64,000 bases of DNA from a virus (Duplodnaviria; Caudoviricetes). The translations under genes were made by a program, and so were the position numbers. Positions 4,121 to 55,430 of this stretch are shown one piece after another. The notes beneath the pieces are model-generated. The model worked only from the letters and a program-made list of their open reading frames with translations. It was not told the DNA's origin and did no database searches. The stretch is from the IMG/VR virus record IMGVR_UViG_3300014208_000026, positions 64,001-128,000 of that record; one strand, given 5' to 3'. Positions within the stretch are counted from its first letter, which is position 1. Every line of letters begins with the position of its first letter.

Positions 4121-4990
4121 ATGGACTCAAAGCAGCAGACTCACCGCATCGTAGCCCGATGGGCCCTGAGACGGGCAGTTCAAGAGGTCTGTGCCTCTCC
4201 AGATTTCCACGTCCGTACCGCTTCTCTTGTTGGATTCACCCCCGAAGTGGTAACTGCTTTTGCGGACAGTTTCATCCTGCCGGTCATTGATTTCCACGAC
4301 CGGACAGCTTTGTTTGGAGGGCTCACCCGTAGGCTATCTCAGTTTGTGGAGATGCTTCGGAAGGCTCCCGCTCTTTGGGAGAAGATCAAAGAATTCCTAG
4401 GGATCAAGAATCTGTTGGATATTCCGAGAGCCATCAAGAAGTGGGCTCAAGAAGGATTCCAGGCGATCCGGAACGTGTTCAAGAAGCTGACGCACGAGTT
4501 TCCCTTGGCTCTGTTCTTCACGGTCCCGAAGGCTATGCCTACAATCACCGATGCTGTGAATCGTATCATGGCGAAGAGCCCCTTCATCCAGCGTGCGGTC
4601 AAGAGCATTCAAGGGGCGGCGGTGAAAATCGATCAGCTACTGGATAGGGCTCTGCCGACTTTCCGGCGTCCCATCCTGGCGGCAATTTTCATTTGGTTCT
4701 GGATGAACATTGCAGAACTGTCTTTCGACCTCCCGGGGACCATCGAGGGTTTCCTGGGTGGGGTTACTCTAGGACAACTTTTCAATGAGTTGCCCGAGAA
4801 CGGTTTGAGTTTCCTGGCGGGCATGTTCGGTTTGGGTTACGAGTTCCTGCCTCTGGTCATTATTGCCCGTGTTGCATGGTTGGTGTCTAAGCGATACATG
4901 AAATGGGTGCCGGGTAAGGGGTTGATAGTTGACTGGGGTGCCGTTACGGCAGGGGCGGAACGGTCTCAAGAATTCGTGTCCGTTTTTTAG
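4121..4990 (+). CDS. Hypothetical protein with hydrophobic C-terminal helices (possibly membrane-associated)
   Basis: PILAAIFIWFWMNI, LSFLAGMFGLGYEFLPLVIIARVAWLV. Confidence 0.6.
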   Translation: MDSKQQTHRIVARWALRRAVQEVCASPDFHVRTASLVGFTPEVVTAFADSFILPVIDFHDRTALFGGLTRRLSQFVEMLRKAPALWEKIKEFLGIKNLLDIPRAIKKWAQEGFQAIRNVFKKLTHEFPLALFFTVPKAMPTITDAVNRIMAKSPFIQRAVKSIQGAAVKIDQLLDRALPTFRRPILAAIFIWFWMNIAELSFDLPGTIEGFLGGVTLGQLFNELPENGLSFLAGMFGLGYEFLPLVIIARVAWLVSKRYMKWVPGKGLIVDWGAVTAGAERSQEFVSVF

Positions 4991-5011
4991 CCTTTAGGCT
5001 TTCCTCTATAG
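4991..5011 (+). promoter_or_regulatory. Putative phage late promoter (bipartite motif)
   Basis: CCTTTAG-N10-ATAG upstream of 5026. Confidence 0.4.
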
Positions 5012-5025
5012 GAGGAGAAGCCCTC

Positions 5026-5652
5026 ATGAGCAGTACAAAACGAGTTGCTAGTCGATATCTACAGCGTCAGTGGCCTCAGAATTTCAGAACCAAGACGGCC
5101 GGTGAGGTCATCCACGTCAAGGACAAGGCGGGAGACGCTCTGGAATGGGCTTATGCCCGTGGCCCGTCCGGTCGTGAGATTTCCCCGAACTTCAAGTTCA
5201 ACGAGAAGAACGTCAAGGTGCTGGCAAAAGTGATGCGCTCCCTGTTGGCCGCCCTTGGCCACACCATGACGGGGTACCACACTTTCACCAAGATCAAGTC
5301 GGTTGGCCTCTCCCCCGACGGCAAGTTGGGTGGCAAGGGTTACGTGATAGAGATCGCCACCATCCGTAAGCACCTGACGAACTGTATCGAGGCCCTCTCT
5401 TCGATCACTGACACCCTCTATGACGAAGTGAAAGCCCCGCATTGGGCCGCCGCTTCTCGTCAGGAGACTCCAGAAGCCAAGCAGGAACTCCATGAGGTCG
5501 TGGAGCAGGCCAAAGAAATCAAAGAGGACCCTGAGGGTTGGGCCGAAGAGCAGGAAGAGGATATGGGGGACGACGTTCCAGAGATCAACGACGAACCCGA
5601 TGAGCCTGTGAACCTTAAGACCGCCAGTACACGCTATCGCAGGAGCCGCTAA
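5026..5652 (+). CDS. Hypothetical protein with N-terminal RVASRYL tag
   Basis: RBS AGGAGG; MSSTKRVASRYL..TKTAG; acidic C-terminus ending LKTAS. Confidence 0.75.
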   Translation: MSSTKRVASRYLQRQWPQNFRTKTAGEVIHVKDKAGDALEWAYARGPSGREISPNFKFNEKNVKVLAKVMRSLLAALGHTMTGYHTFTKIKSVGLSPDGKLGGKGYVIEIATIRKHLTNCIEALSSITDTLYDEVKAPHWAAASRQETPEAKQELHEVVEQAKEIKEDPEGWAEEQEEDMGDDVPEINDEPDEPVNLKTASTRYRRSR

Positions 5653-9184: not shown

Positions 9185-9186
9185 CC

Positions 9187-10409: not shown

Positions 10410-10521
10410 GGAGGGGGAGATAGAAAGTGCTTTTCAGAGTTAGTGCCGATTCGTCCAACTGGGAGTTGGACGTTAGCTGGGCCATGGTGGCCCGGGAATG
10501 GCCTCAAGGAGGGGCCTTATA

Positions 10522-11677: not shown

Positions 11678-12628
11678 ATGCATGGAATCATCGAGTTCGC
11701 CGAGAAGAGCCTGAATATCCGTCTCTATCCTGTCCAGAAAGTCGTCCTCAAGACTATCTATGGAGAGCCTTTGGACGACAGGGAAGCCTTTAAGATCCCG
11801 ACCGATTGGAGACAAGAAAAGTATCTCTCCATGACAGAGGCAGGATACCTTCAGTATCTATATGAAGAGGGACGAAGCAACGTGAGGGAGCCTAATCCCG
11901 CACTCAAAAAATCCGTTCTCGTAGCCGGACGTCGGGTAGGTAAGAGTTTTCTGGAAACTATCATCATGAGGCACGAGATCCAGAAGTTGGTTTCTCCGGA
12001 TTTTGGAGATCCTCATGCTAGATATGGTTTGTCGCTGAATGACAAGATCAATGTTATATCGGTTACTCCAGGGAGTGATCTAGCCCGCTACATCAAGACA
12101 GAGTTCTGTGCTCTTGTTCCGGGAGTGCCTACTTACGGGGAGTCTGGGACAAGATTCCGGACTTCTGCTCTGAACAGTTCTCTGCGCTCCCCTGCGGAGT
12201 ATAACGTGCGGGCTATGTTCCTGTCTTCTTACTCTCCAGAAGTTTTGAGAGGTTTGAATGCCTATGTTTTGATTTTGGATGAGGCAGGGCATATGACGGA
12301 CAGGCAGTTGTGCGATATCACAAACGCTTGTGGTGCCTATGTGTTTTTTCCGAAAAAAGAGGGCAAGCCTAGCGGGCCTCTGGAGTCCAGAGTTGTCACT
12401 ATCTCCTCTCCTGGAAGGCCCTTTTACGATAAACGCAAAACACTATTCCAGCAGATATATGAGATAGATTTCAGAATGGGGACCAGTACGTGTTTCCAGA
12501 TTCCGACGTGGGAAATGAACCCCACTATCCCTGCCAAAGAGTATTCTAAGCACTATGACAAAGATCCTCTTATTTTTGAAATAGAGTTCGGGGCTAGGTT
12601 CTTGGAGTACAAGGAGACTCTTGTATAA
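11678..12628 (+). CDS. TerL ATPase-domain-only paralogue 2
   Basis: LYPVQK, Walker A GRRVGKS, LRG..VLILDEAGH, QIPTWEMNP; stops just after EFGARF. Confidence 0.8.
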   Translation: MHGIIEFAEKSLNIRLYPVQKVVLKTIYGEPLDDREAFKIPTDWRQEKYLSMTEAGYLQYLYEEGRSNVREPNPALKKSVLVAGRRVGKSFLETIIMRHEIQKLVSPDFGDPHARYGLSLNDKINVISVTPGSDLARYIKTEFCALVPGVPTYGESGTRFRTSALNSSLRSPAEYNVRAMFLSSYSPEVLRGLNAYVLILDEAGHMTDRQLCDITNACGAYVFFPKKEGKPSGPLESRVVTISSPGRPFYDKRKTLFQQIYEIDFRMGTSTCFQIPTWEMNPTIPAKEYSKHYDKDPLIFEIEFGARFLEYKETLV

Positions 12629-16432: not shown

Positions 16433-18304
16433 ATGGCTGTCCAAAAACCGCGTACACGTCGAGTGTCTATCGTTGGGAATCGAGGGACCCCCCGGAGGGT
16501 CGTGGCAGGGGCCATGCGGTCGAACGGGTTGGAGGGGGCTGTTGAAGTCTCTAAAGTAAAGCCTCGTCCGGCAACCCTGGGCCGTCCCGCCGTCAGGACG
16601 GGAAAGCCAGGGAAGATTGCCTCTGGCTCGATGCGGTTGGGTACTTCCGCTTTCGGCATGCCCGGGATTGGGAACTCTACGATGGGGCAGGGAGGTAACT
16701 TCTACTCCCCTGAGTTGTCGACTGACTTTTTGGAATTGCCGCAGAGCAGGGACGAAGAACGAAACTACTATCGGTTCTTCTACAAGCACGATCCTTTCGT
16801 CGGTCAGGCTATTGACCTCCAGACAGATATTCCGCTCTCGAAGATTCGATTGGGTAAGCCTGAGATTCCAGAGTTTGATTTGGACTATTTGAACAGCCCC
16901 GAAGGAAAGGAATTCTTGAAGGGGGCGGACAAACTGGCCAAGCAGTCCCAGCGGTTCTGCAAGAAGTGGAACCGTAGGATTCACTTGCTGAAACAACTTC
17001 TGGATATCTCCCATGATTTGAACCTTCTCGGTGAGGTTTTCGTTTTCATAGAGGACGACAATCCAGAGATGCCTGACGACGTGAGATACAACACGGTCCT
17101 GGCGATTGATCCCGAAGGGGGGGAGCCAGTAGAGCAGAAGCATGAGCGCGAAGACGCGGATGAGCGGGCCTACGAGTGGCTCCGGACGCATTACAAGGGA
17201 TGGACCGCCATGCGGGTTCTGCCGCCCGAGCAGATCAGTATGAAGTCTTTCCCCTTCACTGACGAGAGGCTCATCCAGCTCATTATTGATAGTAAGACCA
17301 AGGATCTCGTGAACCAAGCTATGGCGGGGGATCCCGACTCCCAGCGGATCATGGAAAGTCTGCCTGAGGATGTGGTTAATGCTGTGCTAGAAGGGGTCAA
17401 CATTCCTTTGAACACGGACCCTGAAGCAGGATCTTTCGTACATTATATATCTCGTCGTAAGTCTCAATATGAAGAGAGAGGCACTTCTGTATTATCAAGA
17501 TGTATAAGAACACTTGTTTTTATGGACAAATGCCGTCAGGCAAATACTTCGATTGCATCTCGTCATATGACACCTATGCGTATTGTTTGGGTTGAAGATG
17601 GCGATGCGGCTGATGTTGAAGAATTGCGTGAACAAGTTGATATGGCGCTTCAGGACCCCGACTATTCGATCATCACGAACTATCAGGTCAACTGGGAGGA
17701 GATGGGGGCGGAGCAGCGGCTTCTGGATCTAACTAGTGAGTACGAGCGAGCAGACCGTATGTTGTATGCCGGTCTGGGAGTTACGGAGTCGCTGTTGTCC
17801 GGTGAGTCCTCCTACTCAGGGGATAGGATCAACCTGGAGGTGATCAACACCCGTTTCATGCTCTTCCGCGAGTTGATGCAAGAGTTTGTCGAAGAGCACC
17901 TCTACGCTCCGATGTGTCGCCGGATGGGTTACGTGGTCACGGACGAGTGGGGGGACGAGATTCCGCTGGTTCCTGGACTGTCCTTTACTCGACTGGCTCT
18001 GCGGGACAATGCGGACACGTTCGACTCCATGCTGAACCTCTACCAGAAGGGCAGTTTGGATATTGACGTGATCCTGGAACTCTTGAATATCGATCCCGAG
18101 ACGACCCGCGAGAAGCTGAAGCGGGATCTGTTCACTCTCCAGGACGCCACCTTCAACGAACTTCTGCGTAGCATCTACAACGACGCGGCTCAGAAGCTCA
18201 ACGACAATTCCAACATGATCGACCTCATGGCGAAGAAGATGGGGATCGACGGGCTGGTGTACAAGAAGGCACAGGAAGAAGGCGACGGTCGGTTCGGCGG
18301 CTAG
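16433..18304 (+). CDS. Portal protein
   Basis: 623 aa just downstream of TerL; FYKHDPFVGQAIDL..IPLS, RGTSVLSRC, LGVTESLLSG.S.YS are portal-like motifs. Confidence 0.75.
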   Translation: MAVQKPRTRRVSIVGNRGTPRRVVAGAMRSNGLEGAVEVSKVKPRPATLGRPAVRTGKPGKIASGSMRLGTSAFGMPGIGNSTMGQGGNFYSPELSTDFLELPQSRDEERNYYRFFYKHDPFVGQAIDLQTDIPLSKIRLGKPEIPEFDLDYLNSPEGKEFLKGADKLAKQSQRFCKKWNRRIHLLKQLLDISHDLNLLGEVFVFIEDDNPEMPDDVRYNTVLAIDPEGGEPVEQKHEREDADERAYEWLRTHYKGWTAMRVLPPEQISMKSFPFTDERLIQLIIDSKTKDLVNQAMAGDPDSQRIMESLPEDVVNAVLEGVNIPLNTDPEAGSFVHYISRRKSQYEERGTSVLSRCIRTLVFMDKCRQANTSIASRHMTPMRIVWVEDGDAADVEELREQVDMALQDPDYSIITNYQVNWEEMGAEQRLLDLTSEYERADRMLYAGLGVTESLLSGESSYSGDRINLEVINTRFMLFRELMQEFVEEHLYAPMCRRMGYVVTDEWGDEIPLVPGLSFTRLALRDNADTFDSMLNLYQKGSLDIDVILELLNIDPETTREKLKRDLFTLQDATFNELLRSIYNDAAQKLNDNSNMIDLMAKKMGIDGLVYKKAQEEGDGRFGG

Positions 18305-18919: not shown

Positions 18920-20026
18920 GTGAGTTCTGCCGTGGGTGCTATTCTATACTTGACCAACGTCAAGGTTTTCGAAGAAGCCTTGGCAAACTTGAATCGGTCG
19001 ATTCTCTACCCGACTGACCGTTGGGATCTGGCTATCAACTACGACACGCTCATGAGAAACGGGAAGCGTTGGGCAGACTACATCATCGACAAGCTGTCTG
19101 TTCCTCCCGCCTATGCCAAGTCGGTGGAAATGATTTCCAGGGAGTTTGCCAAGCCTCGGCGTCCCAAGGATATTCCAGCTTGGTTCGAGAAGAACAAGAA
19201 GCGGTTGGAAGTCCTGCTCCTGGCTGACAAGTGGCCCCAGGCTTCTGAGAACGAGGGTACAGAGGGAGAGGTTTTCAAACACGGGGGGTTGACAATCCAC
19301 AACGTCATTCGAGCAAGCGGTAAGGCTCTCGAAGATGCTTTGAAGACCCTCGATATCGCGATGAGGAATGCTGCGGGTACGGGGATCTCGGATTTCCGGT
19401 CGGTGGTGTATGGGGACGTGTACCTCGTCGGGCAGTTGGGCCGAAAGAACTGGGCCGCTTGGTATATGCCCGCCAAGGATATGATTTACCTCCGACCTGG
19501 GGTCAGGGGCTTACCTCCCGAAGAGTGCGCCCAGCACCTGTTGCACGAGTTCGGGCACCGGTACTGGAAATTGAAGTTGTCTCGTGAGGTAATGGGGACT
19601 TGGAACTCACACCACTACCTCATGGAACATGGAATCGGTGCGGGTGGAGACGCTGAAGCCAAAATGCCGGAGGTCGGGGATGCACTCCCTATGAATGTGG
19701 ATAGGAAAAAGGTCAAGGTTGAAAAGATTGAGAAGTCGACTTATTCTCTTGTTGCCGTAGATACGGGGGCTCCTGCGGGCACAATATCTTTTAGTCAGCT
19801 ATTCAATTGGCTGTACAATTATTCAATAGCCGAGAAGTTTCCGACCCTGTATGCCCGCACGGATGCCGAAGAGCACTTCTGCGAAGCATTGTCCCTGAGG
19901 GCTCTGGGCAAGCTGAAGGCTCACAACCTGGAAGCATTCGACAAGATTGTTCTGGGAGAAGGGAAGGGACAGGGGGCTGTGAGGGTTGCGGGTCGGTGGT
20001 TGCGAGGAAAGGGCTGGGCAAGATGA
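18920..20026 (+). CDS. Zincin metallopeptidase (MPTase / lethal-factor-like) with C-terminal RVAGRWL tag
   Basis: LLHEFGHRY plus downstream YARTDAEEHFCEAL. Confidence 0.75.
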   Translation: MSSAVGAILYLTNVKVFEEALANLNRSILYPTDRWDLAINYDTLMRNGKRWADYIIDKLSVPPAYAKSVEMISREFAKPRRPKDIPAWFEKNKKRLEVLLLADKWPQASENEGTEGEVFKHGGLTIHNVIRASGKALEDALKTLDIAMRNAAGTGISDFRSVVYGDVYLVGQLGRKNWAAWYMPAKDMIYLRPGVRGLPPEECAQHLLHEFGHRYWKLKLSREVMGTWNSHHYLMEHGIGAGGDAEAKMPEVGDALPMNVDRKKVKVEKIEKSTYSLVAVDTGAPAGTISFSQLFNWLYNYSIAEKFPTLYARTDAEEHFCEALSLRALGKLKAHNLEAFDKIVLGEGKGQGAVRVAGRWLRGKGWAR

Positions 20027-20787
20027 ATCACGCTACATCAGTTGCTTTGATGAAGTTCCTTTCAGGGGTCGCTAGGAGACTCGGAGTGGGAAATGACACA
20101 TATATTGTGGGAGGAGCTGTGCGTAATTTTACGCTTGATCCAACAGGACTCAAGTATCCGATCAAAGATTTGGATATTGTAATAGATCCGGTATCTGTAG
20201 GCAGAAAAGATGCTTCTGATTGGTTTGCAAAGCAATTGTCTGAGAACATACCAGCAGAAACCAAGATCGTTACGAATAATTATGGAGTTGCGATATTGTC
20301 GGTAGTTGGGGAATGGGTTCTTGATGGGCAATCTATGCGCGGAGAGGTCATTGAGATTGCTAATGCTCGAAAAGAGAGTTATGGGGGTGGGGATAGTGAA
20401 AAGGATTCGGGAAAAGGATATAAACCTCATATGGTTGAACCAGCGACTATATATGAAGATATAAAAAGAAGAGAGTTCACCATGAATTATCTCCTCTGGC
20501 GTTTGTATGATCTTGCAGATGGTCCAGACAAAGCTGAGATATTGGATCTTGGGGGTTGTGGACTAAGGGATCTTAAAGAAGGTGTGTTGCGTTGCCCCTC
20601 CGATCCGGACAAGACTTTTTCCGATGATCCTAGTAGGCTTTTGAGGCTTTGTAGGTTCTCTGTGAAATACGGCTTTAAGATACCTCCTGAAATAGTAGAG
20701 TCTGCTAGAAGAAATGCGCATAAACTCAAGAACATACCTCCTAGTGCTCTTTCCAATTTACTCATTAAAATACTAGAGGGAAAATAG
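20023..20787 (+). CDS. cca: Class II tRNA nucleotidyltransferase (CCA/poly(A) polymerase family), N-terminal catalytic part of a split gene
   Basis: YIVGGAVRN, KDLDI (DxD), EIANARKESY, DIKRREFTMN, GLRDLKEGVLR, FSDDPSRLLRLCRF. ATG 20023 overlaps the upstream TGA. Confidence 0.85.
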   Translation: MNHATSVALMKFLSGVARRLGVGNDTYIVGGAVRNFTLDPTGLKYPIKDLDIVIDPVSVGRKDASDWFAKQLSENIPAETKIVTNNYGVAILSVVGEWVLDGQSMRGEVIEIANARKESYGGGDSEKDSGKGYKPHMVEPATIYEDIKRREFTMNYLLWRLYDLADGPDKAEILDLGGCGLRDLKEGVLRCPSDPDKTFSDDPSRLLRLCRFSVKYGFKIPPEIVESARRNAHKLKNIPPSALSNLLIKILEGK

Positions 20788-29535: not shown

Positions 29536-29925
29536 ATGCCCGACCGGAATCTTACAACCCGAATTGCCCAAAGGCACTTGCAGGCTCGCAAGTTTGTCTT
29601 GACTCCGCAGGTAGTCGCCGAGTTCCGCAAAGAATTCCTGATGTTGATGAAGAACCTGAAGCGAGTTCAGGATTACGAAGGGGCGATGGCCCTGAAGGAG
29701 GCTCTCCGTACCTGGAACCAGGACATGGATTTCTTTTTCGAGCAAATCCGTGATTTCCTCGAAGATCTGGTTCGAACCGAGAAAGACTCCGGTACAGGTA
29801 AATGGGCGGAGCATTACCTCAAGGAGTTAGGTCCGAGTTTCGGGGCTTTTCTGCATTGGGTTCCACATCTTCCGGTGACTAGGGTGGGGACGGTAACTTT
29901 TGATTTTGATTTCGATTTTAGATAG
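29536..29925 (+). CDS. N-terminal fragment of the giant polyvalent gene, cut by the IS607-like insertion
   Basis: Starts with a RIAQRHLQA tag; its last codons (VTFDFDFDFR*) lie in T-rich IS left-end-like sequence; joins in frame to the 31131 ORF at CGG. Confidence 0.6.
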   Translation: MPDRNLTTRIAQRHLQARKFVLTPQVVAEFRKEFLMLMKNLKRVQDYEGAMALKEALRTWNQDMDFFFEQIRDFLEDLVRTEKDSGTGKWAEHYLKELGPSFGAFLHWVPHLPVTRVGTVTFDFDFDFR

Positions 29926-38517: not shown

Positions 38518-38542
38518 TCTCTTTCTTTTGGGAGGTTCCCTT

Positions 38543-39160
38543 ATGAGGGAAACTAAGAACAAGAAGAGAGCACAACTGATCACCGACTACCAAGCTCGGG
38601 CCTCCGAGTTTGCGGTTGGTACCAGGGTGGCGCCGATCGGCGTGGACGTCTATTCCCATACGGGAGAGGTGAAAGCCGTTTTCCCCGCTATCGGTATGGT
38701 GGACGTGGAGTTCGCTTGGGGCTCGCAGCGTTTCCCTGTTGAGGACCTCAATATCATCGAAGACGCTCCGCTGGCCGCCCCTCAGCACGATTCTATTCCT
38801 GGCGGTCCGGCAAAGGTTTCCGTTCCTGGCGGTCCGACTCCCAAGACTGCGGCCCAGCGGCAGAAGACCGCCAAGCGGGTTGCCGAGGCTTTCGTAATGG
38901 CTTCCATCACGAAGAACGCTCTCTACTGGGGTGACAGGGATCGGAAGTACCGTGCGACCAAGAGGGAACTGGGTGAGGGCAATTACTTCTGCCCGAAGCA
39001 TCGTGACGTCCCGCTGCGTCCCGCCGTGTTCATGCGGGAGAACGGTAAGAGCCTGCGTCTCATGGGTTGCCCCGAGTGCATGTTCCTTATCCGTCGAGAC
39101 GATATCTGTCACGAGAAGCCCGTGGTGAACGTGACTGTGGAAATCGAGGGGGCTGAATAG
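38543..39160 (+). CDS. Hypothetical protein (SH3-like plus C-terminal zinc ribbon)
   Basis: FAVGTRV..VDVEF SH3-like segment; CPKH..GCPEC; RBS GGAGG. Confidence 0.65.
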   Translation: MRETKNKKRAQLITDYQARASEFAVGTRVAPIGVDVYSHTGEVKAVFPAIGMVDVEFAWGSQRFPVEDLNIIEDAPLAAPQHDSIPGGPAKVSVPGGPTPKTAAQRQKTAKRVAEAFVMASITKNALYWGDRDRKYRATKRELGEGNYFCPKHRDVPLRPAVFMRENGKSLRLMGCPECMFLIRRDDICHEKPVVNVTVEIEGAE

Positions 39161-42100
39161 ATGGCTTTCCTGAAGTTCGCAAATGCACGAATCATCACGC
39201 CGGACCTTGGTGGTCAGGCGGGGTGGAAAAAAGTGCGTACCGCGGCTAAGAAAGCTGACGTGTCCCCCGACCTTTTGGAGCAGGCCAGCGGTATTCTCGG
39301 GAAGCCTTTCAATCCCGATGACTACCTGCTGACTCACTGCACCATCGTTTCGAGCGTCGACGTGGAGCCTGTTCCTGGGGCCAAGATCGGTAAGATCAAG
39401 GAGAACGGCTTTACTGTCAATCGTATCTACGGTGACTACAGGATCACTGAAGACACTTTGGAGCAGATCAACGCGAACAAGGATGCATGGGCCCGTGGTG
39501 TCATTCTGAAGTCCTACCAGACGTTCAGGGGTGGCCAGAATTTCTGTTTTGCTCCTGGCACTGAAGTTCTGATGGCTGACGGAACTTACCGTCCTATCGA
39601 GAAGGTAGTGGCAGGGGACGAAGTGATCACGCATACGGGTGAGGCTCATAAGGTCACTCAGACTTTTGTTAGGGATTTCGAAGGCCCGATTCAGGCTCTC
39701 TACGTAGACCGATTCAAGGATCCTCTTCTCGTTACGGGAAATCATCCGTTCAGAGCCATTTCTGTCACAGCTTCTCAGTTGACCTCTTACTCTGGAGCTA
39801 AGCTTTCTAGTCAGGTTCGCTATCGAAGAGATCAGATAGTAGACTCCCTTCGGGATGGAGAGGGTCATTTTGGTAAGGCGTTTCCGGCAGTCCGCGAGAT
39901 CAAAACTCTCCTGGCTAAAAGCGCTATGCTAGCCGGGGACATTGCAGAAGCGATGGGCCATAAGAGAACTTATTCTTCTGTCATCATTCAGAGAGTTCTA
40001 AAGCGGCACACAGACCAGTTTTTTTCCCGTCCTTTGCTTGTTTCAGAGTATCCGTCTTTACAGAAGGGGCGGTGGTGCAGTCGAGTGTGGGCTGTTAGAG
40101 AAGACGCCCCTGATTTGCCGGATACTGACGTGAAGGCAGACAAAGATTGGGTAGCTGCTGAGCATTTCAAAGCCGGGGATTTCATTCTCGGCCCAGAGCA
40201 AAAGTTAGGGCAGATATCCGAACCTGAGAAGGCCACTCTTCTTGGTTATTACCTTGCAGAAGGGTGCCGTCTTGATCCTCATAAGGATTATGGGGTGTGT
40301 TTGGTTTTCGGGGCACATGAGCGAAATCTCGTAGAGCATGCTGCGAAGCTGGCTGAAGGGTGTTTCCCGGGAACTACGGCTCATATTCAGAATCCTAAAA
40401 ATGGGGCTTTGAGAGTAGATTTGCGCGGTTCTGAGATTTGTAAGTGGATGGTTCGAAACGGCGGCATTTATTCTGAATCAAAGCGTCTCCATCCGGACGT
40501 TTTCTCTTGGGACAGAGAATCTCTTTTGAGAATGTTTGCCGCGTGGATGGCTGGAGACGGGGATCATCACAAAGGAACCTTACGTCTTCGTGGAGTTTCC
40601 GTGTCTCATGAGCTTGCACAGCAAATGCACAGAGTTGCTGAGTTGTGTGGGATAAAATCTTCTGTTGTTTTTACGCGCCAAAAAATTGGCGAGGTTTGTA
40701 GTCAAGTGACAATGGTTATTGGGGGTGAGCCTCGCGTTTTCAACGTGATTCCTCGGCACCACGTGTGGACTGTTTTGGTATCTAAAGACTCCACTCCTGA
40801 AGTTACTTGCCGGAATATTCGGTGGGGGGTTCCTCTACACGTTGTTGAAGATGTGCACAAACGTCAGGAGTTTGCTTGGTGGGGTGGTTGCAGGGTTCAT
40901 AGGGTAGATTCTAATGAGTCTATCCCCTATAAAGGTAAAGTGCATAATATAGAGGTTGAGGAAGATCATTCCTATGTAGTCGATTATGGTATTGCGGTAC
41001 ATAATTGTGAGCACATACAAATCACGGAACTTTCCAAGGGCCGCATCATCGATGCCGTAGCCCGTGACGTTGGGAATTCGATTTACGTGGATATCCTGAT
41101 TGCTACGGACAGGAAGCACACGGACCTCATTCGGGATATCAAGTCGGGTAAGATGGGCACCCTCTCAATGGGTTGTTTCCTCCCCGGGACTCAGGTGTCT
41201 CTGGCTGACGGTAGTCGTGTAGCAATCGAAAACGTGCAGGCTGGAGACAAGGTTCTGACGCATAAGGGCCGTGCTCGCGAAGTGCTGAACAAGCAGGTTC
41301 GTGAGGGCGTGTGGAACATCCGGCGTATTCAGGTAGCCGGGGTTTCGGCTGTGATCACTGCAACGGACAATCACCCCTTCTACGTGCTTCGTGACGAGTG
41401 GGAGTGGATTCGGGCCGACGAACTTCAGGCAGGAGATCTCCTGTGTGTTCCTGTGGGGGATCAGACCGCTTCTGTTGTTCTTTCTATTGAGTCTGGTACC
41501 TACGAAGGTCCTGTCCATAACATGGAAGTGGCGGAGGACAACTCCTATGTTGTGGAGGGAGTCGCTGTTCACAACTGCACGACCGATTTTACTATCTGCA
41601 CCAAGTGCGGGCACGTCGCTGTCGACGATACTGACCTCTGCAGCCACATTAAATACGAGAAGGGCAACACCTTCTATTACCCCGATGGGAAGAAAGGTAT
41701 TGTTGCAGAGTTATGTGGGCATTCTTCAATCGATCCGACCGGAGGCGTCTATTTCATCGAAGCCTCTTGGGTTGGTAAGCCCGCATTCCTTGGCGCTGTG
41801 CTCCGTAACATCATCGAGGCCAGGGAAGTGTCGCCCTCTACCCGTAAGAAGGCTATGGAGGTTCTCTCCTCCCTGCCCCCGCAGTGGACTACGAATGGCC
41901 GTAAGAAGGCCGCCAGCATGTACCTCAGTGCTTTCGACGACGGGATGGATGAAGGGACCGAAGAGGCTCCGGCTGAATCCGAAGGAGCCCCTGCAGAGTC
42001 CGAAGGAGCCGCGTCTCCCTGGTCCGATCTCGAAGACAAGATGGTCCAGAAGATTCTCCAGAACGTCGAGAAGAAGCTGTCCGACCAGCTAGGTCCGGAC

Positions 42101-42475
42101 GGTAAGTCTGTGCCTTCTGCTCAGTCTGAGACGGCCCCGAACAACAACATCATCAAGCAGGCTGTCAAGAAGACGGCGGCTCAGTTCTACAACAACACTC
42201 TCTCCGCCATGCTCCGTACCGCTTCTTCGGATGCGGATCTCATGGATCGTGTGGCTGCATTGAATACTGCGTTCGGGATTTCCATCCCCGTGCCTCTGTA
42301 TCGTGCGGCTTTGAAATTCAGCGGTAGGAATACCACGCTGAAGGGTTATGTCGCCTCGTGCGAACGTGCTTTAGGCAGAAAGGTCGAAGCCGGGGAGGCC
42401 AAGACTTTAGTGCGTTTGGGGAAACTGCTGGAGCAGTTCTCCAATAAAACGGCAGCGAAACAGCAATCACGGTAG
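39161..42475 (+). CDS. Prohead (capsid maturation) protease, HK97/assemblin-like, with two inteins (483 aa after splicing)
   Basis: Spliced exteins read QNF-CEH..SKGRIIDA..LSMG-CTTD..FIEASWVGKPAFLGA (His, Ser and E.S.V..PA motifs); directly upstream of scaffold and capsid genes. Confidence 0.75.
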   Translation: MAFLKFANARIITPDLGGQAGWKKVRTAAKKADVSPDLLEQASGILGKPFNPDDYLLTHCTIVSSVDVEPVPGAKIGKIKENGFTVNRIYGDYRITEDTLEQINANKDAWARGVILKSYQTFRGGQNFCFAPGTEVLMADGTYRPIEKVVAGDEVITHTGEAHKVTQTFVRDFEGPIQALYVDRFKDPLLVTGNHPFRAISVTASQLTSYSGAKLSSQVRYRRDQIVDSLRDGEGHFGKAFPAVREIKTLLAKSAMLAGDIAEAMGHKRTYSSVIIQRVLKRHTDQFFSRPLLVSEYPSLQKGRWCSRVWAVREDAPDLPDTDVKADKDWVAAEHFKAGDFILGPEQKLGQISEPEKATLLGYYLAEGCRLDPHKDYGVCLVFGAHERNLVEHAAKLAEGCFPGTTAHIQNPKNGALRVDLRGSEICKWMVRNGGIYSESKRLHPDVFSWDRESLLRMFAAWMAGDGDHHKGTLRLRGVSVSHELAQQMHRVAELCGIKSSVVFTRQKIGEVCSQVTMVIGGEPRVFNVIPRHHVWTVLVSKDSTPEVTCRNIRWGVPLHVVEDVHKRQEFAWWGGCRVHRVDSNESIPYKGKVHNIEVEEDHSYVVDYGIAVHNCEHIQITELSKGRIIDAVARDVGNSIYVDILIATDRKHTDLIRDIKSGKMGTLSMGCFLPGTQVSLADGSRVAIENVQAGDKVLTHKGRAREVLNKQVREGVWNIRRIQVAGVSAVITATDNHPFYVLRDEWEWIRADELQAGDLLCVPVGDQTASVVLSIESGTYEGPVHNMEVAEDNSYVVEGVAVHNCTTDFTICTKCGHVAVDDTDLCSHIKYEKGNTFYYPDGKKGIVAELCGHSSIDPTGGVYFIEASWVGKPAFLGAVLRNIIEAREVSPSTRKKAMEVLSSLPPQWTTNGRKKAASMYLSAFDDGMDEGTEEAPAESEGAPAESEGAASPWSDLEDKMVQKILQNVEKKLSDQLGPDGKSVPSAQSETAPNNNIIKQAVKKTAAQFYNNTLSAMLRTASSDADLMDRVAALNTAFGISIPVPLYRAALKFSGRNTTLKGYVASCERALGRKVEAGEAKTLVRLGKLLEQFSNKTAAKQQSR
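39545..41005 (+). mobile_element. Intein 1 with LAGLIDADG endonuclease (487 aa)
   Basis: CFAPGTEV..VTGNHPF..LLGYYLAEG..FAAWMAGDG..HNIEV..GIAVHN; +1 residue is Cys. Confidence 0.92.
41174..41575 (+). mobile_element. Mini-intein 2 (134 aa)
   Basis: CFLPGTQV..ATDNHPF..HNMEV..GVAVHN; +1 residue is Cys. Confidence 0.92.
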
Positions 42476-42490: not shown

Positions 42491-43870
42491 ATGAAACGAC
42501 AGCGTAGTACCTGGGTCAAGAAGGCTTCGGCCGCCCCGGCGGTCCCGTTTGAGTCCGGCGGTCACCCTGCTGAGCAGCCCGATCCGAACGAGCACGATTA
42601 CGAGAACGGGGACACCTCGTCTTGGAACGAAGATCCCAAGCCCGGCCCCTACACGCAGAGCGGTCACCCTGCGACCCCCGATGAGGGCATTACTCATCCG
42701 GCCGCCAAGAAGGCTCGCCTTACTCCGAAGCAGGCTGCTGTCATGCAGAAGCGTGCTGAGGTGAAGGCCGCCAAGTGCGTGAAGATGGCGACTGCTTTCC
42801 TCGGCGAAGACGCCGACGAAGGCGACGTTGAGGATCAGGCTCTCGCGTTCATGGATCTCGACGACGCCAAGGTTGAGGCTTCCCTGAATCGCCTGAGCGA
42901 GGATGTCCCTGAGGACGAGGAAGCGGACGACGACGAAGAGGCCATGCTCGCCGCCATGCTCGCCGAGGAAGAGGAGAAGGACGACGAGGCCGACGACGTC
43001 GAGGAAGAGCCTGAGCCCGAGACGGACAAGACCGCTTCGCTGAAGCGGCGTCTCGCCAAGGCGGAAGCTCAGCTTCGCAAGCTGGCCGAAGAGGATGAGC
43101 CTGAGGAAGAGGACGACCCCGAGGTTGCCTCCCTGAAGAAGCGTCTCGCCAAGGTTGAGGCTCTTTTGAAGAAGGCTACCCGTAAGGCCGCCGACGACGA
43201 GCCCGAAACCGAGGAAGAGACCGAGGACAAGACTGCCGGTCAGAACGAGCCCGACGCTTTCTATACCGACAAGGGTAAGGAAGCCGATGATGGCAACGAG
43301 GATCTCGACGACGAAGAGAAGGCCATGCTGGCCGAGATGACCGCTGAGGAAGACGACGGCGACGAGGATCTCGACGACGAAGAGAAGGCCATGCTCGCTG
43401 AGATGCTGGCTGAGGAAGAGACCGAAGAGAAGCCCGAGGAGACTGAGGCTGAGGAGCCCGAGGAAGCCGAAGGCAAAGAAGCCTGCGACGCTTGTGACGG
43501 TACCGGCGAAGACCTCGACGGGATCGATGACATCTTCATCGACGACGCCGATATGGTCCCCGAACTGGAAGAGCCGATTGTCCTTGACGGCGACCCCATG
43601 GGCATGCTGGCCGATGACGTCGAGTTCACCCCGGAAGACGAAGCCGATCTGGCTTCCCTGTACGCTTCTGACGAGACCGAGGAAGTTCCTGTCGAGAAGA
43701 CGGCCCGTGCCAAGACGGCTTCCCGTAAGGTTGCCCCGAAGCCCGTTCCGAAGAAGGTCAGCACTGGTGCCAAGAAGCTCGGTAGCGTCCGTACGGCGTC
43801 GACCGAAGCCAGCTCGCTTGAGAACATCTGGGAAAGCGCTCCGGACGTTTCGGACGTGTTCAACCAGTAG
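42491..43870 (+). CDS. Acidic capsid scaffold-like protein
   Basis: Very Asp/Glu-rich coiled coil between protease and capsid genes; internal repeats (EDLDDEEKAMLAEM x2, SLKxRLAKxE x2); many KTAS/KTAG sites. Confidence 0.65.
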   Translation: MKRQRSTWVKKASAAPAVPFESGGHPAEQPDPNEHDYENGDTSSWNEDPKPGPYTQSGHPATPDEGITHPAAKKARLTPKQAAVMQKRAEVKAAKCVKMATAFLGEDADEGDVEDQALAFMDLDDAKVEASLNRLSEDVPEDEEADDDEEAMLAAMLAEEEEKDDEADDVEEEPEPETDKTASLKRRLAKAEAQLRKLAEEDEPEEEDDPEVASLKKRLAKVEALLKKATRKAADDEPETEEETEDKTAGQNEPDAFYTDKGKEADDGNEDLDDEEKAMLAEMTAEEDDGDEDLDDEEKAMLAEMLAEEETEEKPEETEAEEPEEAEGKEACDACDGTGEDLDGIDDIFIDDADMVPELEEPIVLDGDPMGMLADDVEFTPEDEADLASLYASDETEEVPVEKTARAKTASRKVAPKPVPKKVSTGAKKLGSVRTASTEASSLENIWESAPDVSDVFNQ

Positions 43871-44767: not shown

Positions 44768-45643
44768 ATGACTAACGTAAGTACCGCCCAGAAGCAAGAG
44801 ATCATCAGTCGCTACATCACCAGCCCCCAGGGCCGCGTCAAGCTGGCTGCCAGCATGACCCAGCCGCTTCGTACTCGGCGTGATTACACGTCGGTCGGCC
44901 GCAAGACTTTCCTGGTCGAGCAGCTTCCCGATGGCGCCTTGCCGCTGTACGATAAGGACCCCGACGTCACGGCGTTCGTGGTCGGCGAAGAAGGCGAGAA
45001 CATCCTGGCGGTCACGAAGCCTCGGCGCGTGATCTTCCCGCTGTTCGAGATCGCTTCGCTCCCCGAGATTCCTCTGACGCAGATCAAAGAACGTCGCTTC
45101 GATCTCATCGAGCGTGCTCAGGATCTGGCCCGTGCTCAGATCCAGGCCGCTGAGGATGAGCGCGTGTTCGCAATTCTGGACGCCATTGCCGTGGCGGGCT
45201 TTGATAGCCTTCCTGGCCAGATGAACCCTGACATCCCCGTCATTGCCCCCATCAGCCCGGCCGTCCTCGCGGATGCGTTCGCTCTGATCGAGGCTCATGA
45301 CCTTCGGGTTGCTCGTGTGTTCATGAATGCCCGCGATTACTCGGACCTGCGTAAGTGGGGCCGTGACATCCTGGACATCGAGTCCCAGGCTGCGCTGCTG
45401 AAGACTGGCCTGATGGCGACCCTCTGGGGCGCTCAGATCATCGTCAGCCGCCTTGTCCCCGTGGGCACCGTGTATGTCACTTGTGAAAGTGACATGTTTG
45501 GACGCATCCCCGTGCGTACGGAACTTACGGTTTTGAGTGCGGACGATCCCCGTGCGCGCACGATTGGGTTCTCCTGCTTCGAAAACCTGGGCATCGGGGC
45601 GTACAACCCCCGTGGCCTCACCCGTCTCACCGTAACCCGCTAG
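44768..45643 (+). CDS. Major capsid protein (HK97 fold)
   Basis: GRVKLAASMTQPLR..DY..VGRK..VEQLPDGALPLYDKD; strong RBS; strongest codon bias in the window; terminator follows. Confidence 0.8.
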   Translation: MTNVSTAQKQEIISRYITSPQGRVKLAASMTQPLRTRRDYTSVGRKTFLVEQLPDGALPLYDKDPDVTAFVVGEEGENILAVTKPRRVIFPLFEIASLPEIPLTQIKERRFDLIERAQDLARAQIQAAEDERVFAILDAIAVAGFDSLPGQMNPDIPVIAPISPAVLADAFALIEAHDLRVARVFMNARDYSDLRKWGRDILDIESQAALLKTGLMATLWGAQIIVSRLVPVGTVYVTCESDMFGRIPVRTELTVLSADDPRARTIGFSCFENLGIGAYNPRGLTRLTVTR

Positions 45644-49750: not shown

Positions 49751-50905
49751 ATGCTCCTGTCCGACCGAGTTGCTTCTCGCTGGTTATCGGAGATATCGAA
49801 GAGATCTAAAGTGTCTCTCCATGCCCTCTTCTCCCAGGCAGTGGAAACTTACGAAAAAGCCGGTAATCCCGAACCCCTGTTGGCTTTTCTGCCGGTGTTC
49901 AAGACCACTCTTGGCGTAACTGAGACCGCTCAGGAGATCGGGTATTCTCGTTCTATCGGGGCAGATTGGTACTACGCTCTCGGCCCGCAGAAGCGGAACA
50001 AGATTAAAGACGTTGTGCGGACTCTGTTTGACCTCGAACGGAACCTAGGGAGCACGTTCTATACGCATCCGATTCCTTCTACGCTCAAGGCTCTGCAAGG
50101 GCTGGTGCCTACGATGTTGTGGCTGGAAACTCAGGTTCAGGAACAGGACTCTGAAGTTCCTCACGGTCCTTTCGTGCTTGTCCAGATGCCTGGAGTTTCT
50201 CAGAAGGCTTGGGGCGGGGCCCTTGAAGCCCTGGACAAAGCCACCGAACTCATCCGTAAGAAGTTCCCGCAGCTTCTGTACGGTAAGGTGTTCGTCACTC
50301 CTAGCGTCAAGGGCGGTAAGGCGGGGACCGTGGCCATGTACATGCCCTCTACCGATATCATTTACCTGTCTTTGCGGGCTCAGAAGACTGTCGGGGACGT
50401 CCTAGCTTTGGTTCATGAGTTCGGGCACAGGTACGACTATCGGTTCTGGCGGGATAAGGATGCGAAGCAGGAGTTTTTCAGTCTGTCGTCTGACACCGTG
50501 TACGAGAAGATTCCGATAGACCCCGCTCTTAAGAAGAAGCTGGTTGAAGAGTTCCTGGTAGCTATGCGATCGTACCGCTCGGGTAAGAAGCCTGTCCATT
50601 GGTCTGATCTGCTTACGCAGTTCACTCAGGAGTCCAACAAGGATTCTAGGAGGCGGTATATTCTGCGGGACTTGTCACAGAAGGCTATCAAGGGAGGGAC
50701 CGCCGAAGAGAAGGCCCTACGGGACAAGTTCTTGGAGATCGGGCCTAACGAGATCGTGACGGACAAGATTCTTCGGGGACCGCTGGCCGTGACCCCCTAT
50801 GGTGCGACGGATTGGAAAGAGAACTTCTGTGAGGCGTTTGCCCATTTCTTGGTGGGTAAGCCTCTCCCTCCTGAGATTCAGTCTTTCATGGAACATCTGA
50901 AGTAA
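49751..50905 (+). CDS. Zincin metallopeptidase with N-terminal RVASRWL tag
   Basis: LVHEFGHRY..YGATDWKENFCEAFA; paralogous to 18920..20026. Confidence 0.75.
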   Translation: MLLSDRVASRWLSEISKRSKVSLHALFSQAVETYEKAGNPEPLLAFLPVFKTTLGVTETAQEIGYSRSIGADWYYALGPQKRNKIKDVVRTLFDLERNLGSTFYTHPIPSTLKALQGLVPTMLWLETQVQEQDSEVPHGPFVLVQMPGVSQKAWGGALEALDKATELIRKKFPQLLYGKVFVTPSVKGGKAGTVAMYMPSTDIIYLSLRAQKTVGDVLALVHEFGHRYDYRFWRDKDAKQEFFSLSSDTVYEKIPIDPALKKKLVEEFLVAMRSYRSGKKPVHWSDLLTQFTQESNKDSRRRYILRDLSQKAIKGGTAEEKALRDKFLEIGPNEIVTDKILRGPLAVTPYGATDWKENFCEAFAHFLVGKPLPPEIQSFMEHLK

Positions 50906-53067: not shown

Positions 53068-53463
53068 GTGAAGCCTGCCAATGCAAGTAGTCAAAGTGCC
53101 TGGGCTCTCCTGACAAACGGAGTGACTTCGGCCAGAGTTAGGACTCACCGTCTCCAGCAGCTTGTCAGTCGAGTGTTGAAGATGATCGAAGATTCGGAGG
53201 AGAAAGAGCATCTCTACGAAGTGGCGGGGGATATTATCATCGCCCTGCCCGAAGGTCTTACGGCGGTAGCTTCCGAGCTGGATCAGACTTCGTACGCTCT
53301 CTCCCTGTTGGGGCAGGAGTTCCTGAAGGATCGGCTCCCCCTGGCAGACAAGAAAGAGATTGAGGACGCGGTGGAGTCTGTTACCATGACTCCCCCAAAG
53401 CAGGATAGCCCTGCTAGCTCCGCTAAGCGGGTTGCCAGTCGATTCCTCAAAGGCCAGGAGTGA
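53068..53463 (+). CDS. Helical hypothetical protein with C-terminal RVASRFL tag
   Basis: Ends SSAKRVASRFLKGQE. Confidence 0.7.
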   Translation: MKPANASSQSAWALLTNGVTSARVRTHRLQQLVSRVLKMIEDSEEKEHLYEVAGDIIIALPEGLTAVASELDQTSYALSLLGQEFLKDRLPLADKKEIEDAVESVTMTPPKQDSPASSAKRVASRFLKGQE

Positions 53464-53469
53464 CTAGCG

Positions 53470-53784
53470 ATGACTGACCCCCACGGGCTCCAATTGGAAC
53501 AAGAGGGCAGGGCCCTTCTTCTGGAGGGAGATGAGGACCTTGTTCTCAGGTTGCGGATCCTCGAAGGGCACTTTGACGACGACGGCAAAGAAATGCGGGT
53601 GATCAAGGTTCTCCTGGTAGGCCCCTTGGAGGGTCCTCTGCACCACAAGCAGATTGCGGAAGAGTTAGTGAATGCGGCTCAAGATGTTTATCAGCGGCAC
53701 ATGGACGATTTCCATCCTACCGAGGGGTTTTCCCAGAAGCTTCTAACGGTGGCCGTTAAACAAGGGGCTGGTAAAAAGAAGTGA
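53470..53784 (+). CDS. Hypothetical protein
   Basis: ORF in operon, overlapping the next start codon. Confidence 0.55.
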   Translation: MTDPHGLQLEQEGRALLLEGDEDLVLRLRILEGHFDDDGKEMRVIKVLLVGPLEGPLHHKQIAEELVNAAQDVYQRHMDDFHPTEGFSQKLLTVAVKQGAGKKK

Positions 53785-55430
53785 GTCGACGTAGAGCCTA
53801 TTCGCCTCCTACCTCTGAGTTGCCTGGGTACAAGACTCTGGTAACGGAGGATTCCGAGAAGGGGTTGCCAGGGACTACCTCTCTGCCTTCTTCCGAAGAT
53901 TCGGGGGGGAAACAGGACCCGGAGCATATCGAGCGGGCTCTTCCTATGCCCCCGAAGCGCCGAAACTTGGAGGTCAAGAAACAGGAGTTCAACACCCCTT
54001 ACCGTCCTGACGACAAACCTGTTCAGCCTCGTACCCGTTCTACTCCCGGGGAAGAGTATGATCATCCTTACATGGAACAGGGGACGGGGATTATTCAGCG
54101 TCGTCCTGGTATCACTGCCGGACTGACTACTCCGTACCCTTCGGCTACGGACAGACAACGTGACCAGAAGGGGGATGCAAAGAGATTTTATCGGCGGAAC
54201 TACCGAAAGAACCGTGGCAAGATTCTCCAGAGGGCCCGAAAGCGGTATCTGAAAATGAAGCACCGTCCTGCATACAAGAGGGACGTCGTAAGGCGTAGGG
54301 ATCATCCTGAGAAGTTCGAGCGGAGACCTTCGGGAGGATTCAGTTCGCCTGCTGAACGGGCTCGGGAACAAAGAGAAGAAGCCAAGAAGGTTGCCTCCCT
54401 ACAGCAGTTGCAGGGACTTTGGTTCAATGACCTTCCCCTTCTTAGCTTGGACGTGGATTCCGACACGGGGGCTGTTCGTTTCACGACTTCAGAAGGCTCT
54501 TACGACCTCCCCCTCGACAGCTTCGTCAATCAGGTGGATTTCGAGTCTCGTGGGATCATGAAAGGGTTCTTTGAGTACGTCGACACTCTCTTCGAATATA
54601 CTGAGAACGGGGACGACGCTTGGTGGCTAGAAGAGGATACTCCTTCTATGGTCGAACGGGTCGCCAGAAAGTACGCGGGAGACGTTATGTTGTTCGACCG
54701 GAAGCCTCCCGAGGATCGGGACGGGGCTGAGATGGACATTCCGAACGGAGGGACTACCTGGGTGGTTCCTACCCACACCCAACCGAACGTGAATGAGAAG
54801 CCGGACAAGCAGATTCCGGCTTACGACTTGAACATAGACCACGAGGTCATGGACAACCCTGGCTCCGCTCGGGTAATCCCTGACAATCACGACTTCGTGA
54901 ACAACAAGGGGGCCTCTGCTGTCCAGAGGTTATCCAAGATTGCTGTTCGAATGGCAGAGATTGTGGAAGCTACGAGTCCGAAGGTTAGAGCAAAGTCCGT
55001 TGGATTGAGGGTCGTGCTTTCCCGAGTGAACCGGAAGAGCTTGTCGTGGCGGTTCACGGTGCAAGGGTCTGACGAGCCTTACACGGTGTTGATGAAGGCT
55101 CTCCCGAAGGGTCCTGGAATACGGAACCTGAAGAACACGGACGTGTTGGTTTCCTGTTCCTGTCCTTTCTGGCGTTGGCAGGGGCCTGAGTATCATGCCA
55201 AGCAGAAGGGTTATCTGTACGGGACGCCTGTTGGAACTGCTTCGACGCCGGATATCAAGGACCCGAACAGGGAACACCTTGCATGTAAACACACAATTGC
55301 CGTCCTGGCTTTCGCTGAGAACTACCGACTGCCTGGACGCGATTGGAAACTAGGGTCGGTGCTAATCGACCTGGAACGGGTTTGGAGAATCGCGGCTCGC
55401 GTTGCCGGCCGGTATAATAGAGGGGAGTGA
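53781..55430 (+). CDS. Multi-domain protein with a C-terminal SWIM zinc finger and RVAGRY tag
   Basis: VSCSCPFWRWQ...ACKH is the SWIM CxC..CxH pattern. Confidence 0.7.
   Translation: MSRRRAYSPPTSELPGYKTLVTEDSEKGLPGTTSLPSSEDSGGKQDPEHIERALPMPPKRRNLEVKKQEFNTPYRPDDKPVQPRTRSTPGEEYDHPYMEQGTGIIQRRPGITAGLTTPYPSATDRQRDQKGDAKRFYRRNYRKNRGKILQRARKRYLKMKHRPAYKRDVVRRRDHPEKFERRPSGGFSSPAERAREQREEAKKVASLQQLQGLWFNDLPLLSLDVDSDTGAVRFTTSEGSYDLPLDSFVNQVDFESRGIMKGFFEYVDTLFEYTENGDDAWWLEEDTPSMVERVARKYAGDVMLFDRKPPEDRDGAEMDIPNGGTTWVVPTHTQPNVNEKPDKQIPAYDLNIDHEVMDNPGSARVIPDNHDFVNNKGASAVQRLSKIAVRMAEIVEATSPKVRAKSVGLRVVLSRVNRKSLSWRFTVQGSDEPYTVLMKALPKGPGIRNLKNTDVLVSCSCPFWRWQGPEYHAKQKGYLYGTPVGTASTPDIKDPNREHLACKHTIAVLAFAENYRLPGRDWKLGSVLIDLERVWRIAARVAGRYNRGE

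Follow-up and report, generated by a model that had tools for sequence, protein, structure and literature searches.

A seven-residue tag on unrelated head-module proteins of a huge tailed phage: a candidate address label for capsid cargo

The stretch of DNA analysed here (the window, 64,000 nucleotides) spans bases 64,001–128,000 of one virus record with a length of 257,181 bp (IMG/VR IMGVR_UViG_3300014208_000026; G+C content 54.8%) and contains the head module of a huge tailed phage. In this phage and its relatives, a seven-residue peptide, R-V-A-x-R-aromatic-L (hereafter, the tag), is common to many unrelated enzymes whose genes lie among those for the head. The copies in the window are listed below, together with the gene that directly follows the second of them; the arrow marks the bond at which the head maturation protease is predicted to cut.

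5041..5061, plus strand: RVASRYL, residues 6–12 of a 208-aa protein (5026–5652), followed by KTA↓G at residues 23–25
19982..20002, plus strand: RVAGRWL, 7 residues ahead of the stop of a 368-aa HExxH (HEFGHRY) protein (18920–20026)
20023..20787, plus strand: CCA-adding/poly(A) polymerase head-domain protein (PF01743, E 1.3e-11)
22944..22964, plus strand: RVASRYL, internal, residue 398 of a 728-aa protein (21753–23939)
23331..23351, plus strand: KVASRYL, internal, residue 527 of the 728-aa protein, between a zinc ribbon (503–524) and an InPase domain (575–699)
23895..23915, plus strand: RIASRWL, residue 715 of the 728-aa protein, just past the InPase domain and 7 residues before the stop
25375..25395, plus strand: RVASRFL, internal, residue 483 of a 991-aa protein (23929–26904), with RTA↓Q 10 residues upstream
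26860..26880, plus strand: RVASRYC, residue 978 of the 991-aa ART-PolyVal/PARP-like protein, 7 residues before the stop
29560..29580, plus strand: variant RIAQRHL, residues 9–15 of a 129-aa ORF (29536–29925)
34914..34934, plus strand: RVASRFL, internal, residue 1262 of a 2229-aa HD-domain protein (31131–37820), with KTA↓A 5 residues upstream
38876..38896, plus strand: weak variant RVAEAFV, inside a conserved 210-aa protein (38528–39160) just upstream of the protease gene
49766..49786, plus strand: RVASRWL, residues 6–12 of a 384-aa HExxH protein (49751–50905)
53428..53448, plus strand: RVASRFL, 4 residues before the stop of a 131-aa protein (53068–53463)
55398..55418, plus strand: variant RVAGRYN, 3 residues ahead of the stop in a 549-aa protein (53781–55430)

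The nine near-identical heptapeptides reported in an initial annotation of this DNA (5041, 22944, 23331, 23895, 25375, 26860, 34914, 49766, and 53428) are all in frame and on the plus strand, as are the variants at 19982, 29560, and 55398. Among the weak variants that it added, those at 4145, 35160, and 54657 are each, taken singly, indistinguishable from chance, whereas the one at 38876 is conserved: in the 15 orthologues of the 210-aa protein, RVA-x-A-[FY]-[VM] is kept in most and deleted in two. This weak variant is preceded by two KTA sites. The gene of the 208-aa protein has a strong Shine-Dalgarno sequence (AGGAGGAG) ahead of its ATG, and the orthologue of this protein in the 288-kb relative G001 (portal 60% identical; 100 kb of it examined for tags) holds an N-terminal RVAVRFA and then KTAG. 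For the 129-aa ORF, the family search gave no match.

With position 4 left free ([RK][VI]A-x-[RK][YFWH][LAVMIC], searched in the called proteins), 16 copies of the tag are found on 12 called proteins of the 257,181-bp genome, 13 of them in genes at 62–120 kb, the region holding the head genes. The strict pattern occurs 11 times genome-wide, each time within a genuine ORF on the plus strand. When the copies were turned into a profile and this was run over the called proteins of this genome and 100 kb of a relative, it found 28 sites at a score of at least 10 against 0.2 in shuffled proteins. Across 1.44 Mb from the phage and its relatives, the pattern with position 4 free yields 59 distinct copies on the plus strand and one on the minus strand. 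A chance origin of the repeated heptapeptide is excluded.

The copies are strongly biased towards protein ends, as had been claimed: 11 of the 16 are no more than 12 residues away from an N- or C-terminus (1.48 expected), a number reached in none of 200,000 simulations. Five copies are N-terminal and six are C-terminal, while the five internal ones fall between recognisable domains. Codon choice varies among them (CGA, AGA, CGG, AGG, and CGC for arginine; AGT, TCG, TCT, AGC, and TCC for serine), so that the repeat resides in the peptide and not in the DNA, as the initial annotation held when it proposed selection on the peptide, and a DNA-level repeat is ruled out. At position 4, the 59 copies hold serine in 23 cases, alanine in 5, glycine in 3, and large or charged residues (R, L, H, K, E, Q, and others) in the remaining 28. 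Phosphorylation of the serine in R-x-x-S was considered and rejected because A, G, Q, E, L, R, H, and other residues can stand in for this serine.

The head genes proper, between and around which the tagged proteins are encoded, are the following.

12628–15834: TerL, with an intein and LAGLIDADG; no tag
16433..18304, plus strand: portal protein (phrog_16240, E 6e-31); no tag
39161..42475, plus strand: head maturation protease gene with two inteins (Hint/intein domains)
42491..43870, plus strand: acidic scaffold-like protein of 459 aa; no tag
44768..45643, plus strand: major capsid protein (MCP; phrog_2522, E 3e-50); no tag

The genes of the portal (16433) and of the protease (39161) enclose a run of genes for large multidomain proteins, and a 222-aa protein occupies the place of phage G gene 26 in this head module. 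The tag was not found in TerL, portal, MCP, scaffold, protease, the two TnpB-type proteins, or the methylase-like ORF of this genome, in agreement with the absences listed in the initial annotation (TerL, portal, MCP, TnpB, and methylase). Its absence from scaffold, protease, MCP, portal, and TerL counts in favour of a label for cargo.

Judged by the MCP, the nearest deposited records are the uncultured 485-kb phage LR745208.1 (85% identity), Tunturiibacter phage Tunturi_5 (major head protein, 49%), and Bacillus phage G (gp27, 37%). An MCP search of IMG/VR gave 563 related stretches, some on contigs longer than 600 kb; in the best 80 of these 563, MCP identity is 83–88% and contigs reach 618 kb. 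A megablast search of 24 kb against the phage collection gave zero matches. In whole-genome counts, the strict pattern at the DNA level is found five times in G001, three times in LR745208, and not at all in Tunturi_5 or in the relative G003; these counts are low because the relatives use looser variants. The 100 kb of G001 examined hold 14 plus-strand copies of RVA-[SAQE]-[RA]-[YFWH]-x, often preceded by the cap-like residues S-P-[S/E] or by S-S-x.

Conservation of the tag is confined to positions 1, 2, 3, 5, 6, and 7. On a helical wheel, V2, A3, the aromatic residue 6, and L7 share one face, bordered by R1 and R5, with the free position 4 pointing away; an extended strand would put position 4 on the side of V2 and the aromatic residue. 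At the level of the alignment, this pattern is the signature of a helix. The AlphaFold2 model of the HExxH protein 49751–50905 places the tag in a helix at residues 3–18, with a pLDDT of ~63 compared to 10-residue blocks mostly above 90 in the body, and that of the 210-aa protein places the weak variant within a helix at residues 108–129, after a disordered linker. Both lines are consistent with the helix postulated in the initial annotation. A complex prediction that combined the MCP, the scaffold, and the C-terminally tagged 131-aa protein returned a score of 0.00 with low-confidence folds.

The tag is retained in highly divergent homologues. The HExxH protein 49751–50905 has 45 database homologues (29–67% identity), and most of those that are not obviously shortened at the N-terminus follow M-x(2-17)-R-V-[A/V]-x-R-[Y/F/W]-[L/V], with the motif within the first ~24 residues; by these alignments, the N-terminal tag of this family is conserved down to ~30% identity. 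In the other HExxH family (18920–20026), the tag changes ends. Homologues P0052, P0053, and P0055 carry it at residues 3–13 and end where the C-terminal extension of the window protein starts, while the window protein has the tag at its C-terminus and none at its N-terminus, supporting the claim that the motif is usable at either end. Orthologue pairs shared with G001 keep the tag at the same end in both genomes, N-terminal in the 208-aa protein and C-terminal in the 549-aa protein, whose G001 orthologue ends in RVAQRHL plus five residues. The SWIM domain ascribed to the 549-aa protein is a Pfam match in this G001 orthologue but not in the window protein itself (53781–55430).

The tag can also be replaced by a different leader. 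A SAM-lyase-like protein (PF23780) encoded elsewhere in the genome starts with M-x6-RVASRFL-ALRTA↓S, and P0003, which is 47% identical to it, holds in the place of the tag another leader of ~28 residues (...LVRLAH...PLLRQA↓T); the tag and this leader are therefore interchangeable. This second, longer N-terminal leader also heads four other proteins of this genome. In the form M..LRK.LVRLAH..PELR..L.PLL.[KR]TA↓, it is seen on several small proteins, at these positions.

Window 571–1095: longer leader
Genome 63309–64121: longer leader
Genome 128578–129120: longer leader
Genome 153583–154539, minus strand: longer leader
Genome 62535–63296: similar leader

One protein with a similar long leader has a Pfam match to Fusellovirus VP2-like (DNA-binding) proteins.

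Modules are likewise found in different surroundings. The tags at residues 527 and 715 of the 728-aa protein flank its InPase domain (575–699), the zinc ribbon ending at residue 524, and the unit formed by the InPase domain and its C-terminal tag, which closes the protein here, lies inside a 2130-aa polyprotein in G001 (63.6% identity, tag RVALRWA). The module that comes after this unit in G001 is flanked by tags in both genomes. The module after the tag at 34914 likewise has tags on both sides in G001. Judged from these comparisons, the tag is portable between unrelated proteins, and modules travel with their tags. The notion that tags are in general relics of gene fission was rejected on account of their conservation at ~30% identity; it does apply to the copy at 19982.

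Some of these tags lie upstream of the annotated starts. The database's own calls P0001, P0005, and P0050 (genome 229060–229638, equivalent to L097:9060–9638; window 49751–50905; and window 18920–20026, respectively) start 10–34 residues downstream of the starts used here, and in P0001 and P0005 this cuts off the N-terminal tag, so that such tags are easily missed. The upstream starts are supported by homologue alignments and, for genome 229060–229638, also by a Shine-Dalgarno-like GGAG.

The tag marks proteins with effector-type domains, and its bearers are unrelated to each other, as the initial annotation had stated. Those of the head module hold InPase (E 3.6e-35), ART-PolyVal (E 1.2e-16) with a PARP-like region, and HD domains, and other tagged proteins are a C39 peptidase and the SAM-lyase-like enzyme. 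Tagged modules of the relative comprise CCA-adding (PolyA_pol), HAD_SAK_1, and 2H RNA-repair domains; a 2H-phosphoesterase-like region is recognisable by eye from HxT motifs in the 991-aa protein and by a Pfam 2H match in the relative. Both HExxH families are predicted to be peptidases, with no Pfam match and one weak PHROG match (E 1.7e-4). One assignment needs correction: the CCA enzyme, described at first as tagged, carries no tag in this genome, and the copy at 19982 ends the HExxH ORF upstream of it.

Several effector domains per chain and a position adjoining the portal and terminase genes, both seen for the multidomain tagged proteins, are the marks of polyvalent proteins. Such proteins are predicted to be packaged and injected, according to Iyer, Burroughs, Anand, de Souza, and Aravind (2017; PMC5512222), and the fit of the tagged domains to the proteins covered there counts in favour of capsid cargo. 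Among the tagged proteins, no MuF or portal fusion was seen. Away from the head genes, a plus-strand operon at genome 15197–22854 (L096) encodes a C39-like peptidase in which RLAQRYA is internal, a protein of 429 aa whose last residues are RVAARFL and six more, and an SNF2 helicase with an intein, and it may represent a second cargo operon.

A second motif accompanies the tag. The tetrapeptide [KR]TA[ASGQ] occurs 50 times in the whole genome against 11.3 expected (z 10.5), with K or R at P3, T at P2, A at P1, and mainly A or S, but also G, at P1'. The scaffold has four sites of this [KR]TA type, the protease has one at residue 26 and three close to its C-terminus, and in many head-module proteins such a site falls at residues 14–33. 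Those in the protease (RTA↓A at residue 26 and the three KTA/RTA sites near its C-terminus) are probably its own processing sites, and nearly all of the 27 relatives listed have an N-terminal R[TVI]A[SG] (RTA, RVA, or RIA) in this protein. All 25 distinct relatives have [KR]xA[SAG] in the scaffold at a distance of 21–27 residues from its C-terminus (KTAS, REAS, KVAS, KQAS, and once RVAS); the window protein has one of its four [KR]TA[SG] sites 23 residues from its C-terminus, and Tunturi_5 has KVA↓S 16 residues from its scaffold end. From this distribution, [KR]-x-A followed by a small residue is probably the cut site of the maturation protease.

The protease gene (39161–42475) is syntenic with the annotated protease of Tunturi_5. 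Its extein spans ~500 aa, and the orthologues in G001 and in the 27 relatives are free of inteins, the G001 protein matching phrog_18299 'head maturation protease' with E 1.4e-8. For the protease, Pfam, phmmer, and a 20-sequence profile run against solved structures gave no match. The scaffold (42491–43870) holds three acidic amphipathic repeats, EE-AML-x-x-ML-x-EE, and a conserved C-terminal tail, LWESAPDVS. Two or three of these repeats occur in G001 and one in LR745208, while none was seen in gp332 of Tunturi_5.

Both motifs are associated. Sites of the form [KR]TA[ASGQ] lie within 25 residues of 5 of the 16 tags against 1.43 expected (P 0.004), and in three small proteins a [KR]TA-type site falls between the tag and the body, after an N-terminal tag or before a C-terminal one, such that cutting there would remove the tag. 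Moreover, the R-V-A-S of the tag itself matches the probable protease-site consensus [KR]-x-A-[SAG], a point that the initial annotation missed; R-V-A-[S/A/G] fits this consensus in 31 of the 59 copies.

These observations are best read as the work of a portable amphipathic-helix address label for proteins carried in the capsid, a reading that we regard as evenly poised between right and wrong, and all of whose steps we infer. The polyvalent effectors encoded in the head module would bear the label N-terminally, C-terminally, or where two modules meet. The hydrophobic face of the label (V2, A3, aromatic 6, and L7), flanked by R1 and R5, would dock on a component inside the assembling prohead and thereby enclose the cargo in it. 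The head maturation protease would then cut at [KR]-x-A↓[S/A/G], either beside the tag or, in the variants with S, A, or G at position 4, inside it (RVA↓S), and the cut would free the cargo for ejection alongside the DNA. The acidic repeats of the scaffold suggest themselves as a possible receptor, an idea that draws on their complementary charge and shape and on Tunturi_5, which lacks both the repeats and the tag.

The internal proteins IPI–III and Alt of T4 reportedly hold a capsid targeting sequence (CTS), said to have been described by Mullaney and Black in 1996. In the T4 CTS, targeting and prohead-protease determinants lie within ~10 residues, and Alt is trimmed at both ends (PMC9026906). 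For a motif that is non-random, selected as a peptide, conserved across a large clade, biased towards protein ends, swapped between ends within one family, exchangeable for a different leader, and helical in structural models, a peptide analogous to this CTS would be the simplest account. As in T4, a short peptide is common to otherwise unrelated head-module proteins, and the cargo includes an ADP-ribosyltransferase. However, the T4 sequence ends in L/I-x-E and has no sequence similarity to R-V-A-x-R-aromatic-L with [KR]-x-A↓small. In addition, targeting in T4 has been demonstrated with an N-terminal peptide, whereas here a single motif, whose function we infer, is found at either end and between modules. 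The initial annotation overstated this last contrast, given that Alt has propeptides at both termini (PMC9026906).

Other systems offer partial parallels. Encapsulin cargo-loading peptides are short, C- or N-terminal depending on the family, and load diverse enzymes into an HK97-fold shell. Encapsulins, however, are not phages and lack portal, scaffold, and protease, whereas the present genome encodes TerL, portal, protease, scaffold, and MCP; their peptides are extended and rich in Gly, Ser, and Leu, whereas the tag would be a basic helix whose binding to the MCP is hypothetical. The M site of the herpesvirus assemblin system, of the x-A↓S type, lies ~25 residues from the C-terminus of a scaffold whose tail binds the MCP. 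The [KR]-x-A-[SAG] located 21–27 residues from the scaffold end in the 25 relatives resembles it in position, which suggests a herpesvirus-like logic of release by cleavage, although the M site concerns the scaffold and not the cargo, and the protease has no assemblin-fold match. The polyvalent proteins share with the tagged ones the multidomain effectors (ART-PolyVal, InPase, HD, metallopeptidase, and RNA-repair domains) encoded beside portal and terminase genes; in contrast to what is seen here, a term search of that paper did not find 'linker', and the passages displayed mention no short tag common to the proteins, whether at their ends or where modules meet (PMC5512222).

Several points weigh against a capsid address label. 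The binding partner of the tag is hypothetical, and the phage and its close relatives are uncultivated. The genes of three tagged proteins lie away from the head module, at genome positions of 16, 224, and 229 kb. The protease assignment consists of one PHROG match and synteny, the profile searches against solved structures having come out empty. The terminal tag at 19982 is clearly a former polyprotein junction split by a stop and a start, leaving the CCA enzyme untagged: the stop of the HExxH ORF overlaps the CCA start in ATGA (20023–20026), and in G001 the equivalent tag sits 10 residues ahead of the CCA domain in a continuous junction, within a 919-aa protein with PolyA_pol, HAD_SAK_1, and 2H domains. 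Lastly, R-V-A-S fits the probable protease-site consensus and tags punctuate polyproteins in the manner of cleavage junctions, so that processing by itself could account for the internal copies.

Extended to all copies, this last point becomes the strongest alternative, although still an unlikely one: the tag would be a processing site only, cut by the protease at RVA↓S to separate polyprotein modules, and the terminal copies would be leftovers of gene splits. The beads-on-a-string arrangement of tags at module borders and the split of the HExxH/CCA junction directly past its tag agree with it, as does the interchangeable P2 residue (T, V, I, E, or Q) of the N-terminal site of the protease (RTA↓A, RVA↓A, RIA↓G) and of the site near the scaffold C-terminus, where RVAS occurs once. 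Nevertheless, the would-be P1' residue is large or charged in 28 of the 59 copies, while the residue after [KR]TA is mostly A, S, or G, and the conserved R-aromatic-L half of the tag is absent from ordinary sites. Scaffold and protease, in which [KR]-x-A-[SAG] is enriched and positionally conserved, are rich in [KR]TA sites but tagless. Unlike relics, copies 3–9 residues from the ends are conserved down to ~30% identity; moreover, the tag substitutes for the other leader in a protein that has an RTA↓S site anyway, and the change of end within one HExxH family would be left without explanation.

It is improbable that the tag is instead a recognition element of the two HExxH (zincin-like) families, which would cut RVAxR↓aromatic-L and whose own copies would serve autoprocessing or autoinhibition. 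Zincins usually select a hydrophobic P1' residue, which counts for this proposal, as does the presence of the tag on both HExxH families themselves, and the metallopeptidase domains of polyvalent proteins have been proposed to autoprocess them (PMC5512222). However, with a pLDDT of ~63 against blocks mostly above 90 for the body, the model does not place the N-terminal helix on the catalytic domain with confidence. Peptidase activity is putative: Pfam gave no match, the PHROG match is that weak one, and a Foldseek comparison of the HExxH model with the PDB gave weak zincin matches, all with E > 0.01. The end-to-end move of the motif within a family would again be unexplained.

Equally improbable is a tag that acts after injection or outside the capsid, either as a linear motif bringing many phage enzymes to one host or phage hub or through self-assembly of the cargo into an inner body: position-independent terminal helices are typical of hub-binding motifs and the three tagged proteins encoded far from the head genes would fit, but no candidate hub was identified, 13 of the 16 copies lie in the 62–120 kb head-gene region, and in several proteins a probable protease site between tag and body implies that the tag would be lost before injection.

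Two TnpB-type genes with Cas12f1-like TNB and OrfB_IS605 domains, at 28031–29323 (minus strand) and 29900–31126 (plus strand), interrupt the run of cargo genes, and the 129-aa tagged ORF sits between them. Directly after the MCP, a 1266-aa ORF (45867–49667) joins an HTH and a weak N6/N4 DNA-methylase match with LAGLIDADG_2 homing-endonuclease repeats. Two additional ORFs (10498–11676 and 11678–12628) match the N-terminal (ATPase) part of TerL, with 32–37% identity to residues 25–389 of the G001 protein; they immediately precede the TerL gene that contains the intein and LAGLIDADG.

A detailed understanding of how large phages choose their capsid cargo comes mainly from T4. In its widest form, the address-label reading holds that one position-independent helix of seven residues is the general capsid-loading code of a globally distributed clade of huge phages and that, in many copies, the scissile bond lies within the anchor, so that cutting breaks the anchor and releases the cargo; this generalisation is possible but rather doubtful. 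If a capsid address label is indeed what the tag represents, cargo, likely to consist of injected counter-defence enzymes, would become readable from sequence across a large uncultivated clade, and the gain, loss, and exchange of polyvalent-protein modules would be explained. It would also provide a minimal handle to load foreign proteins into phage heads. In the widest form of the reading, any enzyme could become a packaged, injected effector by gaining seven residues at one end or the other, which would explain the fast shuffling of anti-defence modules between polyproteins.

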